64,000 nt of DNA from an uncultured Verrucomicrobiae bacterium (GTDB lineage Bacteria; Chlamydiota; Chlamydiia; Chlamydiales; Rhabdochlamydiaceae), in assembly GCA_963731265.1 (NCBI GenBank), contig CAVSUE010000001.1:1152001-1216000 (forward strand). Reading direction: 5' to 3'. Below, one piece after another: positions 26,659 through 34,968 of this stretch. The position numbers and the translations under genes were made by a program. The notes under the pieces were generated by a model. That model saw nothing but the letters and a program-made list of their open reading frames with translations, had not been told where the DNA came from and searched no databases. Each line of letters begins with the position of its first letter. Within the stretch, counting starts at the first letter, position 1.

Positions 26659-27963
26659 ATGACGCAGATCACAACAGTTCATTCAACGAACTCTGCGTCC
26701 ATTATACCGGAGGATGCACCCATTTTGCAGATGCCTTTGGATATAGTCAGCCAAATATTCACCCACTCGAGCGGCCAAGAAATCGGAAGAAGTGCTCGAG
26801 TTTGCAGACAATGGCATCAGATGGTGAATGATTGCGATTGGAGCTTGCTCTTCTCTCATCATTTTCCAACGTTTGACTCTAGCGCCATTCAGAATTGCAA
26901 GGAGGCTTACCAAGCCCAATTCAAACCTAATTCAAACTTTACAAATGGGGTGTATGCTTCCTACACGCTTCAAGGCCATAAGGACGCGGTTCTCTGTCTT
27001 GGCTTTGCTAAAGGAAAGCTCATTTCAGGCTCTGACGACAACACCATCAAAATCTGGGATTTAGAAACGGGAGCCTGCACACAAACCCTTCAAGGCCATA
27101 ACGACTCGGTTTTCTGCGTTACCTTTGCTCAAGGAAAGCTCATTTCAGGCTCTCGTGACGACACGATCAAAATCTGGGATTTAGAGACGCGCGCCTGCAC
27201 ACAAACCCTTCAAGGCCATGACGACTCGGTTTGCTGCGTTGCCTTCGCTCAAGGAAAGCTCATTTCAGGCTCTGAGGACAGCACCATCAAAATCTGGGAT
27301 TTAGAAACGGGAGCCTGCACACAAACCCTTCAAGGCCATAACGACTCGGTTTTCTGCGTTACCTTTGCTCAAGGAAAGCTCATTTCAGGCTCTCGTGACG
27401 ACACGATCAAAATCTGGGATTTAGAGACCGGCGCCTGCACACAAACCCTTCGAGGCCACCGGAACACGGTTTGCTGCGTTGCCTTCGCTCAAGGAAAGCT
27501 CATTTCAGGCTCTGCTGACAACACCATCAAAATCTGGGATTTAGAAACGGGCACCTGCACACAAACCCTTCAAGAACTTAAGAGCTCGATTCTCTCCCTT
27601 GCCTTTGCTCAAGGAAAACTCATTTCAGGCTCTCGTGACAACACCATCAAAATCTGGGATTTAGAGACGGGCGACTGTACACAAACCTTTCAAGGCAATG
27701 ATGACAAGGTTAACTCCCTTGCCTTTGCTCAAGGAAAACTCATTTCAGGATCTGATGACTACTCCATCAAAATCTGGGATTTTATAGCGGGTCACCCCAC
27801 GGTCTTTCAAGAGATTGAGGAACTGTTAAAACAGGAAAATCCACAAGTGGTTGAGGATGCCCTTGAACGGTTTTCAAGAATGCCAAGAACAGCAAAAAAT
27901 GGGATGTATAGAAAGCTCTTTAGATCGCTGCCAGTGCCTATGTCCACCAATGGGGAATTTTGA
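26659..27963 (+). CDS. F-box / 7xWD40 protein, paralog 1
   Basis: ILQMPLDIVSQIF...ARVCRQWHQM F-box; seven 40-aa GH...WD repeats. Confidence 0.95.
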   Translation: MTQITTVHSTNSASIIPEDAPILQMPLDIVSQIFTHSSGQEIGRSARVCRQWHQMVNDCDWSLLFSHHFPTFDSSAIQNCKEAYQAQFKPNSNFTNGVYASYTLQGHKDAVLCLGFAKGKLISGSDDNTIKIWDLETGACTQTLQGHNDSVFCVTFAQGKLISGSRDDTIKIWDLETRACTQTLQGHDDSVCCVAFAQGKLISGSEDSTIKIWDLETGACTQTLQGHNDSVFCVTFAQGKLISGSRDDTIKIWDLETGACTQTLRGHRNTVCCVAFAQGKLISGSADNTIKIWDLETGTCTQTLQELKSSILSLAFAQGKLISGSRDNTIKIWDLETGDCTQTFQGNDDKVNSLAFAQGKLISGSDDYSIKIWDFIAGHPTVFQEIEELLKQENPQVVEDALERFSRMPRTAKNGMYRKLFRSLPVPMSTNGEF

Positions 27964-28138
27964 AGACGTGAAACCCTCTTCGATCTCGAGGAGTACACCA
28001 CTTATCGGCGCTCTCCGAATCTCAACCGAAAAATCTCTTTCAAATGGGAGAATAGAAGTTGGAAACCCAGAAGACGTGTAAGTGTAAAGATAAACACAAT
28101 TAAATTAATTAATAAGAAATAAAACACAGGAAAAAATT

Positions 28139-29449
28139 ATGACGCAGATTACAACAACTCATTCAACAAACTCTTCTGCGATTATACCGCAGGATGCACC
28201 CATTTTGCAGATGCCTTTGGATATAGTCAGCCAAATATTCACCCACTCGAGCGGCCAAGAAATCGGAAGAAGTGCTCGAGTTTGCAGACAATGGCATCAG
28301 ATGGTGAATGATTGCGATTGGCGCTTACTCTTCTCTCATCATTTTCCAACGATTGACTCGAGCGCCATTCAGAATTTCAAGGATACTTACCAAGGATTAT
28401 CCAAATTTAAATCAAACTTTCCAAACGGAGTGTATGCTTCCCATACTCTTCGAGACCATGAGGACGGGGTTCGATCAGTTATCTTTGATCAAGGAAAGCT
28501 CATTTCAGGCTCTGACGACAACACCATCAAAATCTGGGATTTAGAGACGCGCACCTGCACACAAACCCTTCAAGGCCATGAGAACGGGGTTTGCTGCGTT
28601 GCCTTCGCTGAAGGAAAGCTCATTTCAGGCTCTGCTGACGACACCATCAAAATCTGGGATTTAGAAACGGGAGCCTGCAGACAAACCTTTCAAGGCCATG
28701 AGAACACGGTTCTCAGCGTTGCCTTTGCTCAAGGAAAGCTCATTTCGGGCTCTTATGACGACACCATCAAAATCTGGGATTTAGAAACGCGCGGCTGTAC
28801 ACTAACCCTTCAAGGCCATGAGGACGGGGTTTGCTGCGTTGCCTTTGCTCAAGGAAAGCTCATTTCAGGCTCTGCTGACAACACCATCAAAATCTGGGAT
28901 TTAGAGACGGGCGACTGCACACAAACCCTTCAAGGCCATGAGGACTCGGTTCTCTGTCTTGTCTTTGCTCAAGGAAAGCTCATTTCAGGATCTAATGACT
29001 ACACCATCAAAATCTGGAATTTAGAAACGGGAGCCTGCACACAAACCCTTGAAGGCCATGAGGGCTCGGTTTGCTGCCTTGAGTTTGCTCAAGGAAAGCT
29101 CATTTCAGGCTCTGCTGACAACACCATCAAAATCTGGGATTTAGAGACGGGCGACTGCACACAAACCCTTCAAGGCCATGAGGACGGGGTTTGCTGCGTT
29201 GCCTTTGCTCAAGGAAAGCTCATTTCAGGATCTAATGACAACTCCATCAGAATCTGGGATTTTACAGCGGATCACCCCACGGTCTTTCAAGAGATCGAGG
29301 AATTGTTAAAAAACGAAAATCCAAACGTGGTTGAAGATGCCCTTGAACGGTTTTCAAGAATGCCACGAGCAGCAAAAAATGCGATGTATGGAAAGCTGGG
29401 TAGATTGCTGCTAGATCGCATGCCTATGTCCATCAATGGGGAATTTTGA
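28139..29449 (+). CDS. F-box / 7xWD40 protein, paralog 2
   Basis: Same architecture as paralog 1. Confidence 0.95.
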   Translation: MTQITTTHSTNSSAIIPQDAPILQMPLDIVSQIFTHSSGQEIGRSARVCRQWHQMVNDCDWRLLFSHHFPTIDSSAIQNFKDTYQGLSKFKSNFPNGVYASHTLRDHEDGVRSVIFDQGKLISGSDDNTIKIWDLETRTCTQTLQGHENGVCCVAFAEGKLISGSADDTIKIWDLETGACRQTFQGHENTVLSVAFAQGKLISGSYDDTIKIWDLETRGCTLTLQGHEDGVCCVAFAQGKLISGSADNTIKIWDLETGDCTQTLQGHEDSVLCLVFAQGKLISGSNDYTIKIWNLETGACTQTLEGHEGSVCCLEFAQGKLISGSADNTIKIWDLETGDCTQTLQGHEDGVCCVAFAQGKLISGSNDNSIRIWDFTADHPTVFQEIEELLKNENPNVVEDALERFSRMPRAAKNAMYGKLGRLLLDRMPMSINGEF

Positions 29450-33589: not shown

Positions 33590-33657
33590 AAACGTGAAAC
33601 TCTCTTCGATCGGCCCAGTAAATTAATTAAAACATAATAAAACACAGTAAAGTAATT

Positions 33658-34968
33658 ATGACGCAGATCACAACAATTCATTCTACAAACTTTGCGCCCT
33701 TAATACAGCAGGATACACACATTTTGCAGATGCCTAAGGATATAGTCAGCCACATATTCACGCACTCGAATGGCCAGGAAATCGGAAGAAGTGCTCGAGT
33801 TTGCAAACAATGGCATCAGATGGTGAATGATTGCGATTGGCGGCTATTCCTCTCTCGTCATTTTCCAACGGTTGACTCGAGCGCCATTCAGAATTGCAAG
33901 GGTGCTTACCAAGCGCTGTTCAAACCTTATTCAAATTTTACAAATGGAGTGTATGCTTCTCATACGCTTCAAGGCCATCAGCGCGGGGTTCTCTTCGCTA
34001 CCTTTGATCAAGGGAAAGTTATTTCAGGCTCTTATGACCGCACCATCAAAATCTGGAATTTAGAAACGGGCGGCTGCACACAAACCCTTCAAGGCCATCG
34101 GGACGCGGTTTGCTGCGTTGCCTTTACACATGGAAAGCTCATTTCAGGCTCTGGTGACTGGACCATTAAAATCTGGGATTTAGAAACGGGTGCGTGCACA
34201 CAAACCCTTGAAGACCATGACGATACGGTTCTCTGCCTTGCCGTTGCTCAAGGAAAGCTCGTTTCAGGCTCTGCTGACTGGACCATTAAAATCTGGGATT
34301 TAGAAACGGGCGCCTGCACACAAACCCTTGAAGACCATGACGACACGGTTCTCTGCCTTGCCGTTGCTCAAGGAAAGCTCGTTTCAGGCTCTGCTGACTG
34401 GACCATTAAAATCTGGGATTTAGAAACGGGCGCCTGCACACAAACCCTTCAAGGCCATCAGGGCGCGGTTAACTCCCTTGCCGCGGCTCCAGGAAAGCTC
34501 ATGTCAGGCTCGTCTGACACCAGCATCAAAATCTGGGATTTAGAAACAGGCGCCTGCATACAAACCCTTCAAGACAATGAGGACAGGGTTCTCTCCATTA
34601 CCCTTGCTCAAGGAAAGCTCATTTCAGGCTTTTCTGATGGCACCATCAAAATTTGGGATTTAGAAACAGGCGCCTGCACACAAACCCTTCAAGGGCCGGA
34701 GGACAAGGTTAACTCCCTTGCCTTTGCTCAAGGAAAGCTTGTTTTAAGCTTTAATCTCAATCCCATCAAAATCTGGGATTTTACAGCGGATCACAACATA
34801 GTCTTTCAAGAGATCGCTGAATTGTTAAAAAACGAAAATCCAAAAGTGGTTGAGGATGCCCTGGAACGATTTTCAAGAATGCCAAGAACAGCAAAAAATG
34901 CGATGTATGGAAAGCTATTTAGATTGGTGCTCGATCGCATGCCTATGTCCATCAAGGGGGAATTTTGA
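33658..34968 (+). CDS. F-box / 7xWD40 protein, paralog 6
   Basis: Same architecture; most divergent blades. Confidence 0.95.
   Translation: MTQITTIHSTNFAPLIQQDTHILQMPKDIVSHIFTHSNGQEIGRSARVCKQWHQMVNDCDWRLFLSRHFPTVDSSAIQNCKGAYQALFKPYSNFTNGVYASHTLQGHQRGVLFATFDQGKVISGSYDRTIKIWNLETGGCTQTLQGHRDAVCCVAFTHGKLISGSGDWTIKIWDLETGACTQTLEDHDDTVLCLAVAQGKLVSGSADWTIKIWDLETGACTQTLEDHDDTVLCLAVAQGKLVSGSADWTIKIWDLETGACTQTLQGHQGAVNSLAAAPGKLMSGSSDTSIKIWDLETGACIQTLQDNEDRVLSITLAQGKLISGFSDGTIKIWDLETGACTQTLQGPEDKVNSLAFAQGKLVLSFNLNPIKIWDFTADHNIVFQEIAELLKNENPKVVEDALERFSRMPRTAKNAMYGKLFRLVLDRMPMSIKGEF

Follow-up and report, generated by a model that had tools for sequence, protein, structure and literature searches.

The 64-kb stretch of DNA analysed here, hereafter the window (C1:1152001-1216000, where C1 and C2 are the contigs of the source genome and coordinates without a contig are positions in the window), contains an array of six tandem genes at 26659-34968 whose products join an F-box to a WD40 propeller. 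We find positive selection, as detected by counting methods, on residues of the d-a and b-c loops of this propeller, together with blade exchange, gene conversion and exchange of gene ends between the paralogues. We consider it fairly probable that the array proteins are type III-secreted mimics of the substrate receptors of SCF (Skp1-cullin-F-box) ubiquitin ligases, diversified by duplication, gene conversion and positive selection. By predicted domain architecture they are FBXW receptors: as in the eukaryotic beta-TrCP/FBXW1A, FBXW7 and yeast Cdc4, an N-terminal F-box is followed by a WD40 propeller in one chain. Unlike these receptors, the array proteins are bacterial, are much shorter before the F-box, possess a tail of their own and are built from blades that are 74% mutually identical, whereas FBXW blades are divergent; moreover, their propeller is closer to the bacterial WRAP-type WD40 propellers than to that of FBXW proteins.

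The array comprises six intact, co-directional paralogues on the plus strand (434-449 amino acids, with no internal stops in an open reading frame (ORF) scan), arranged with a tandem unit of 1379 bp (Table 1). Each protein begins with an N-terminus rich in Ser and Thr, which is followed by a eukaryote-type F-box, then by seven WD40 blades of 40 residues and finally by a conserved tail of about 55 residues, which is specific to the family and carries the motif E-R-F-S-R-M-P. The F-box (residues 22-65) exceeds Pfam gathering scores in 6/6 genes as PF12937 (33.3-38.6 bits against a cut-off of 24.3), and PF00646 (F-box) likewise matches all six (24.9-31.7 bits against 20.5). An I-K/R-I-W-D/N anchor occurs seven times per gene at an exact spacing of 40 residues, giving 42 blades in the six genes, so that the F-box/WD40 array described in the first-pass annotation of this DNA, which was made from the sequence by a model, is borne out. 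The only irregularity of spacing is a 4-residue insertion in blade 7 of gene 4, and the 120-bp period is recovered in every gene by Tandem Repeats Finder (6.1-6.8 copies, 84-89% matches). The further claim that every gene is intact and has exactly seven blades holds for the anchors and the reading frames but less well for gene 6, where PF00400 (WD40) detects only 6 stretches against 7 in each of genes 1-5, blades 3 and 4 are near-identical, and blades 6 and 7 retain only an eroded S-G-S-x-D motif. Identity to gene 1 is 73-92% across the paralogues (gene 3 being the closest, at 92%), and the array and the window have equal G+C contents (0.460 and 0.463). Gene 4 lacks, near its end (32190-32246), 1 bp that the other five genes have; the usual stop is thereby lost, and the protein gains 13 residues encoded by DNA that serves as spacer elsewhere in the array.

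AlphaFold2, given an alignment of only six sequences, predicts a confident propeller over residues 99-375, with block-mean pLDDT (predicted local distance difference test) of 81-98 and four strands per blade. A strand at residues 99-105, ahead of the first repeat unit, forms the outer strand of blade 7, and the propeller ring is closed because this strand completes that blade. The best sequence match in the PDB is 2YMU, a highly repetitive WD40 protein of Nostoc (E 9e-114, listed for gene 2), followed by designed propellers, FBXW7 (1.8e-83) and FBXW1A (1e-60, in an alignment that reaches into the F-box), while the best Foldseek matches include the beta-TrCP-Skp1, Fbw7-Skp1 and Cdc4-Skp1 complexes. 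Profile searches detected no NTPase, kinase or death domain in the array proteins, in which only the F-box precedes the repeats.

For the analysis of variation, the repeat unit was taken to run from L-x-G-H to C-T-Q-T, and its strands were assigned by DSSP (A 8-14, B 17-22, C 26-31, D 37-2), which places the d-a loop at unit positions 3-7, the b-c turn at 23-25, the a-b loop at 15-16 and the c-d loop at 32-36. In WD40 propellers, the d-a and b-c loops make up the top face. The accessible text of PMC1805685 states the same for HET-E. Amino-acid entropy across the 42 blades peaks at positions 23, 25, 7, 5, 9, 36, 12 and 6. The prediction that variable sites follow the GH and SGS motifs captures positions 5, 6, 7, 9, 11, 12, 23 and 25, yet it leaves out position 36, which is also variable. 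Mean amino-acid identity between blades is 0.74 (0.68-0.79 per gene) and reaches at least 0.85 in just 49/630 blade pairs; divided by site class, the 32 scaffold positions average 0.86 and the 8 variable positions 0.26. The scaffold DNA had been called nearly invariant, and two 23-nt scaffold motifs are indeed confined to the array (exact copies number 19 and 20; allowing up to one mismatch gives 33 and 34, and up to two gives 36 and 36), but blade DNA is not invariant, because synonymous diversity among blades amounts to 0.17-0.20. Positions 5 and 7 flank a mostly conserved Asp (25/42 blades) and positions 23 and 25 a near-invariant one (40/42), and 31-33 distinct six-residue loop signatures are found among 41 blades.

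When homologous sites are compared between genes, the proportion of nonsynonymous differences at the 8 variable positions (pN 0.42) greatly exceeds that of synonymous ones (pS 0.13), whereas pN/pS is 0.41 in the scaffold, 0.38 in the F-box region and 0.60 in the tail; the F-box, scaffold and tail are under purifying selection. Since picking sites by their own variability is circular, the test was redone with loops delimited only by the DSSP strand assignment. In the top loops (unit residues 3-7 and 23-25, with the conserved G, H and D included), pN/pS was then 1.89 over in-register pairs and 1.74 over all blade pairs, against 0.40 and 0.44 for bottom loops and 0.62 and 0.66 for strands, and a bootstrap over blades put the ratio of pN in top loops to pS at all sites at 2.03 (1.73-2.38). 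Of the checks proposed alongside the annotation, selection analysis over the blades and mapping on a predicted structure support a concentration of variability in the top-face loops. Codon by codon, we counted changes on a neighbour-joining tree with parsimony states, for 41 blades of the window and for 86 blades of the 13 closest genes. Relative to mean dS (the synonymous rate), dN (the nonsynonymous rate) was 2.9 and 4.5 in the two sets respectively at position 7, 4.3 and 4.5 at position 23, 2.4 and 3.5 at position 9, 2.7 and 3.5 at position 25, and 2.1 and 1.9 at position 36. Taken singly, positions 7, 23 and 36 reach significance (p<0.05) in both sets and position 9 only in the larger one (p=0.067 with 41 blades); several scaffold codons are significantly conserved. 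Furthermore, two other blade sets are likewise most variable at positions 5, 6, 7, 9, 23 and 25: 68 blades from 13 genes of a second subfamily in the source genome, and 72 blades from 16 genes of a congener's independent array.

The array is not an isolated locus. The source genome (2.34 Mb in 2 contigs, of 2.0 and 0.34 Mb) contains 52 F-box-like matches, 42 of them above cut-off, and 32 copies of the array's N-terminal module; our own inventory based on hidden Markov models (HMMs) lists 28 ORFs that combine the module with at least four blades, 25 of which are seven-bladed. The array is one of at least five clusters of this family of about 32 members (Table 1), and arrays equal to or larger than six genes exist in congeners; on a contig of one of them (C16:1-36000), at least 16 F-box/WD40 genes follow one another in tandem on a single strand, and their blades are hypervariable at the same positions. 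The suggestion of an undescribed system is consequently overstated: rather than being self-contained, the array is one cluster of a larger family. By ATG-based ORF calls, family members fall into three length classes, of which the window genes are the shortest, followed by an intermediate class of 467-488 residues and a long class of about 653-698 residues (mostly 676-698). Long forms, for example those around C2:149000-158500, bear an additional conserved, all-helical C-terminal domain of about 250 residues, which matches no Pfam family, gave no Atlas lead (best score 0.80) and is modelled poorly by AlphaFold2 as an all-helical fold (mean pLDDT 54.7). The closest relatives of the window genes are such long forms, at 72-73% identity over residues 1-423, and the similarity between the two stops just past the shared tail motif; the additional domain has been lost at differing points in the intermediate and the short forms. 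The array derives from, or recombines with, these longer paralogues. A search of the tail and spacers for a frameshifted remnant of the long-form domain returned no significant local alignment (z 0.2-2.7), which gives that candidate no statistical support. Elsewhere in the genome, at C1:1516654-1517660 on the minus strand, a family member is broken by an in-frame TAG into a 151-residue F-box ORF and a 231-residue ORF with 5 blades, and is probably a pseudogene.

The family is rare and narrow in range. A full-protein query matched 15/41 genomes, including 12/18 within the genus (1-38 matches per positive genome) and extending to two other genera, while the N-terminal module matched, weakly, 1/150 in a sample of other genomes of the order (111 genera, that of the source genome counted). 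Among 1.84 billion representative proteins, the module matched 77 clusters at E<=0.001 and 13 at E<=1e-10, mostly of 430-720 residues with the match at the N-terminus; relatives' proteins are labelled 'F-box/WD repeat-containing protein' by NCBI. Kinase-WD40 proteins of Nostoc, 42-46% identical, predominate among the WD40-only relatives, with no eukaryotic name among the best 120, and the family apparently joins a eukaryote-type F-box to a bacterial-type repetitive propeller. One record from a metagenome-assembled genome of Treponema sp. aligns at 36% identity over query residues 7-392, and may represent an F-box/WD40 protein outside the PVC (Planctomycetes-Verrucomicrobia-Chlamydiae) group.

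A potential explanation for such a family is neutral birth-and-death ('genomic drift'), in which copies expand and contract without adaptive value and loops vary as unconstrained surface. Copy number among congeners spans 0 to 38 matches, broken or truncated members exist (C1:1516654-1517660) and the blades of gene 6 are eroded, all of which suit this model, and Domman et al. raise it for chlamydial F-box families (accessible text of PMC4209131). However, relaxed constraint caps pN/pS at 1, whereas the top loops, defined a priori, reach 1.7-1.9 and single sites 2-4.5 times mean dS. Purifying ratios of 0.38-0.60 in the F-box, scaffold and tail, and the hypervariability of the same six positions in three independent blade sets, likewise argue against drift, which we regard as unlikely.

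The adaptive reading requires a route into a host. Judging from its genes, the organism belongs to the PVC group and is a chlamydia-like, obligately intracellular bacterium equipped with an injectisome, an assignment drawn from its type III secretion gene order, its TLC transporters and its Hc1 protein. At C1:1645717-1652268, sctU, sctV and sctW are adjacent and are followed by a 143-residue ORF and malQ, with NCBIfam scores of 472.7 bits for SctU (cut-off 434), 911.7 for SctV (692) and 90.1 for the gatekeeper SctW (89.5); the single FHIPEP gene in the source genome is sctV. The order sctU-sctV-sctW...malQ is also that of Chlamydia. Additionally, the genome encodes five TLC nucleotide transporters, one with an in-frame stop, and an Hc1 histone-like protein, while Chlam_OMP6 had no match anywhere and is hence not informative on taxon. 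The setting among environmental chlamydiae envisaged in the first-pass annotation is upheld by these features (cdsU-cdsV-sctW with malQ, the transporters and Hc1), and the array fits the F-box expansion by tandem duplication described in the accessible text of PMC4209131.

The six genes represent recent tandem copies within a bacterial F-box/WD40 family specific to the genus, inserted at the glgA locus in the source lineage. Under the reading we favour, their products would be exported into the eukaryotic host cell through the type III injectisome; their N-termini, rich in Ser, Thr, Ile and Asn, are at most suggestive of a secretion signal. The F-box would dock on host Skp1 and, as family membership suggests, make the protein a substrate receptor within an SCF ubiquitin ligase of the host; the choice of host protein for ubiquitination would fall to the propeller's top face. 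PF01466 (Skp1) gave no match in the source genome, nor in the control genomes. The repertoire arises from ordinary processes: copies multiply by tandem duplication and exchange sequence by gene conversion and unequal recombination, both among near-identical blades and among paralogues. New specificities would emerge from such duplication and from blade or gene conversion, combined with positive selection acting on the d-a and b-c loops. For these proteins, secretion, binding to Skp1, ubiquitination and the possession of distinct targets are what we infer. If this is correct, the family provides a clear example of positive selection diversifying the surface by which the ubiquitin-ligase adaptor of a symbiont or pathogen recognises its targets, and the drivers of effector repertoire size and host range in chlamydia-like bacteria become testable paralogue by paralogue. 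Being compact (about 435 residues, its scaffold fixed and each blade bearing some six specificity residues), the family could also serve as an engineered-degrader scaffold. If secretion or Skp1 binding fails, the array would be an ordinary lineage-specific expansion of repeat proteins.

Secreted proteins of this kind might nonetheless act otherwise than as adaptors, either as decoys, by tying up host Skp1 or by shielding host proteins, or as proteins whose loops vary in escaping host recognition. An F-box joined to a variable propeller face fits these roles equally well, and an arms race with a host factor would also yield pN/pS above 1. Specific evidence for them is wanting, however, and the bacterial F-box effectors described in the accessible parts of PMC7830128 and PMC4209131 engage SCF components; some 32 copies with an intact F-box under purifying selection, moreover, suit a working adaptor better than a decoy. 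We accordingly give a decoy or escape role a low probability, similar to that of drift.

Several observations weigh against the interpretation of the array as a set of selected, secreted SCF receptors. The AlphaFold2 models of the F-box region (helices at residues 17-68) and of the helical tail of about 55 residues have pLDDT below 50, so that for the F-box fold the evidence consists of HMM matches alone. The selection figures come from counting methods applied to short recombining repeats, and the pooled top-loop ratio falls to about 1.4 when site-specific dS is used (86-blade set, by arithmetic on the per-site rows). The expectation that variation would lie largely on the top face holds as regards its concentration in the d-a and b-c loops, but not every variable site is there: position 36 belongs to the c-d loop, at the bottom, and 9, 11 and 12 to strand A. 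A consensus scan found no sigma-70-like site in any array spacer. A tree of the N-terminal region recovers the six genes as a clade in 0/100 bootstraps. Finally, the loss of the C-terminal domain of about 250 residues, together with the eroded blades of gene 6, could represent partial decay.

Expansions of F-box families in environmental chlamydiae are known, as are hypervariable WD40 repeats in fungal and bacterial receptors of immune type, but we found no description of the two combined in a putative family of secreted effectors. In the openly accessible literature, no account was found of expanded F-box/WD40 families whose loops are hypervariable, either from chlamydiae or from verrucomicrobia, and neither F-box nor WD40 occurs in the Rhabdochlamydiaceae pangenome paper (PMC9723776). 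A close parallel is with the NEX1a and NEX2 families of Parachlamydiaceae, which, in the accessible text of PMC4209131, are likewise lineage-specific families of tens of members with an N-terminal F-box and C-terminal repeats, arranged in tandem arrays and differing greatly in copy number between relatives. Unlike the array, however, the NEX and PEX families described there carry leucine-rich repeats (NEX1a), tetratricopeptide repeats (NEX2) or BTB domains; the term 'WD40' is absent from that text, 'WD-40' occurs once, generically, and none was found in the two of three supplement files searched. A section heading of the same paper reads 'Gene Duplications and Purifying Selection', against which the array differs in its loop codons with pN/pS above 1 and in its blade shuffling. 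In nematodes and plants, host F-box families are cited there as evolving adaptively (PMC4209131, accessible text).

A second comparison is with an effector whose F-box has been assigned a function. Known from the accessible text of PMC7830128, AnkB of Legionella belongs to an amoeba-associated intracellular bacterium and uses a eukaryote-like F-box to engage host SCF, as proposed here. The differences lie in the repeats and the copy number, AnkB being a single gene with ankyrin repeats, whereas the family described here has WD40 repeats and about 32 members in a genome with a type III system.

The first-pass annotation had also likened the pattern of variation to that of the fungal HET-D and HET-E receptors, and this analogy holds in part. 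Like the fungal NWD proteins HET-D and HET-E, the array combines conserved internal repeats with exchange of repeats within and between paralogues; selected codons of the d-a loop and the b-c turn occur in pairs around a conserved residue in both (7/9 and 25/27 in the fungal NWD repeats, 5/7 and 23/25 in the array), and the diversity of loop signatures is comparable (55/69 fungal, 31-33/41 here; PMC1805685, accessible text). The likeness ends at overall identity: fungal highly internally conserved (HIC) repeats are defined by more than 85% amino-acid identity over at least 100 residues (PMC4986451, accessible text), a level that the array blades, at 0.74, do not reach. The array proteins further differ from fungal NWD proteins in having an F-box instead of HET or NACHT, with no NACHT/NB-ARC STAND NTPase, in coming from a bacterium, and in a blade number that is fixed at 7, with no repeat-number polymorphism seen; and the proposed role is that of an offensive effector rather than of a sensor in immunity or allorecognition. 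A bolder proposal, which we hold possible but doubtful, is that the genus runs an 'inverted immune receptor' strategy, in which injected F-box/WD40 degrader adaptors have their top faces continually diversified according to the evolutionary design of fungal NLRs, in which the scaffold is homogenised, blades are shuffled and pairs of loop residues are positively selected. If this were true, paralogues would send different host proteins, or host-species variants of them, to the proteasome, host range would be reflected in the number of copies and the content of their blades, and the genus would possess a natural library of programmable degraders in which a eukaryotic F-box is grafted onto a bacterial WRAP-type propeller.

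With WRAP propellers (PMC9218822, accessible text) the array shares near-identical blades, consistent with recent amplification or homogenisation, and a blade number of seven, which is the median there. Those propellers, however, are joined to STAND NTPases, TIR or kinase domains, with links to bacterial immunity, and the accessible text of PMC9218822 mentions neither F-box nor Chlamydia. One might thus suppose a role inside the bacterium, for example as a WRAP-type WD40 sensor like those of cyanobacterial STAND/NLR-like defence, with the F-box match being incidental, and it is true that Nostoc supplies both the best solved relative of the propeller (2YMU, E 9e-114) and the nearest WD40-only relatives, the kinase-WD40 proteins. 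Yet no NTPase, kinase or death domain accompanies the array propellers, the F-box exceeds its curated cut-off in 6/6 genes and the family is confined to an obligate intracellular lineage, and we find an internal sensor very improbable.

Evidence for recombination among the six genes is abundant. Blade DNA identity carries no register signal (0.858 for blades of the same gene at another index, 0.854 for the same index in another gene, 0.845 where both differ), and the nearest DNA neighbour is out of register for 26/42 blades. Genes 1 and 3 have exact common stretches of up to 332 nt, and between them out-of-register exact stretches extend over 228 nt at +120 nt, 147 nt at -240 nt and 112 nt at +360 nt; the blades of gene 3 are register-shifted relative to gene 1, and one of them is a chimera of two gene 1 blades. 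At the ends of the genes, synonymous distances are discordant: in genes 4 and 5 the N-terminal region is close (pS 0.065) and the tail distant (0.248), whereas in genes 2 and 4 the pattern is reversed (0.257 and 0.024). Together, the absent register signal, the out-of-register matches and the discordant ends establish blade exchange and gene conversion. A tree of the tail groups the six genes with a bootstrap of 86.5, although the region takes in a shared truncated end, and since the trees of the two ends disagree, with the N-terminal tree never uniting the array, its history is either mosaic or beyond the resolution of these trees.

The exchanges observed are those expected of ordinary homologous recombination between repeats. 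The view of the array as driven by recombination is therefore retained as regards blades and gene ends, but not as regards a dedicated machinery, none of which was found in the source genome; reverse transcriptase (PF00078) gave no match in this 96%-complete genome, whereas the control genomes did match. A programmed system, be it a diversity-generating retroelement or cassette-type switching that writes the blade-loop variation, would resemble the array in its near-constant scaffold with few variable codons and in the copying of blades between positions. Beyond the missing reverse transcriptase, however, the variation spans all codon positions and many residue types, synonymous differences of 0.17-0.2 across whole genes indicate slow ordinary divergence, and no silent cassette or invertible element was seen in the array spacers, all of which makes programmed diversification highly improbable.

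An assembly artefact, by which near-identical repeats were collapsed or expanded so that gene and blade counts are wrong, is equally hard to credit: the long exact stretches common to genes 1 and 3, and the breaking of short-read contigs from public runs inside the array, would invite it, but the genome lies in only 2 contigs, the paralogues differ at 8-27% of residues, the six frames are intact with closed seven-blade propellers, two independent public contigs span the junction of glgA and gene 1 at about 93% identity, and comparable arrays occur in closed genomes of congeners. The pieces from public runs that fall over the array are mostly 76-410 nt long, with 90-99% likeness, and fit several places, and at most 0.10 of the sampled words occur in the best runs.

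Table 1 Coordinates of the array, its immediate surroundings and the other clusters of the family
Feature	Position	Strand	Details
glgA-type glycogen synthase	23344-26643	+	GT5/GT1 at residues 530-1004; stop 15 bp before gene 1 start
Gene 1	26659-27963	+	434 aa; F-box ~26722-26853; seven 120-bp blades 26968-27807; conserved helical tail to 27960
Spacer, genes 1/2	27964-28138	+	175 bp; AT-rich 3' end common to other spacers
Gene 2	28139-29449	+	436 aa; F-box ~28202-28333; blades 28448-29287; tail after
Gene 3	29518-30828	+	436 aa; F-box ~29581-29712; blades 29827-30666
Gene 4	30897-32246	+	449 aa; F-box ~30960-31091; blades 31197-32048
Gene 5	32279-33589	+	436 aa; F-box ~32342-32473; blades 32588-33427
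Gene 6	33658-34968	+	436 aa; most divergent copy; F-box ~33721-33852; blades 33967-34806
Other spacers	29450-29517, 30829-30896, 33590-33657	+	68 bp each, homologous
Short spacer	32247-32278	+	32-bp version
Terminator-like hairpins (two)	34996-35009, 35083-35102	+	just 3' of gene 6; consensus scan
Aromatic amino-acid transporter	37336-38535		downstream flank of insertion
Family cluster	C2:149705-158097		4 genes
Family cluster	C1:530130-534395		3 genes
Family cluster	C1:956243-960382		2 genes
Family cluster	C1:1096102-1098926		2 genes

The array is a lineage-specific insertion between the glgA-type gene and the transporter gene, and is absent from this site in 5/5 congeners, where the gap between the two orthologues is 0.5-1.6 kb as against 10.7 kb here. 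The glgA product has an N-terminal extension of about 530 residues without a family match, and while each congener has one orthologue of it, 4/5 of those searched also have 2-4 paralogue matches. Co-transcription is possible, given that gene 1 starts 15 bp past the glgA stop, that the spacers lack promoter-like sites and that the terminator-like hairpins follow gene 6. No terminator-like site falls in the intergenic spacers and three others lie on the plus strand inside the coding sequence of genes 2 and 4, in a scan that is itself weak, with 5 sites found against 11.3 expected by shuffling. Transport of the comparison effector AnkB follows a different path, as Legionella delivers it through a type IV system.

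The interval that separates the array from the transporter gene (35178-37268, plus strand) contains a 272-residue ORF without a family match, a 108-residue ORF for a four-helix membrane protein and an overlapping ORF of 329 residues. About 7.5 kb upstream of the array, a 509-residue ORF (17644-19173, plus strand) shows TnpB-like similarity (NF040570, 77 bits, below the cut-off of 100) and weak Cas12f-type matches, and may be a relic of a transposon-associated RNA-guided nuclease. The start of the window (1-7000, minus strand) is occupied by a tryptophan biosynthesis cluster comprising trpB, trpE and their neighbours.

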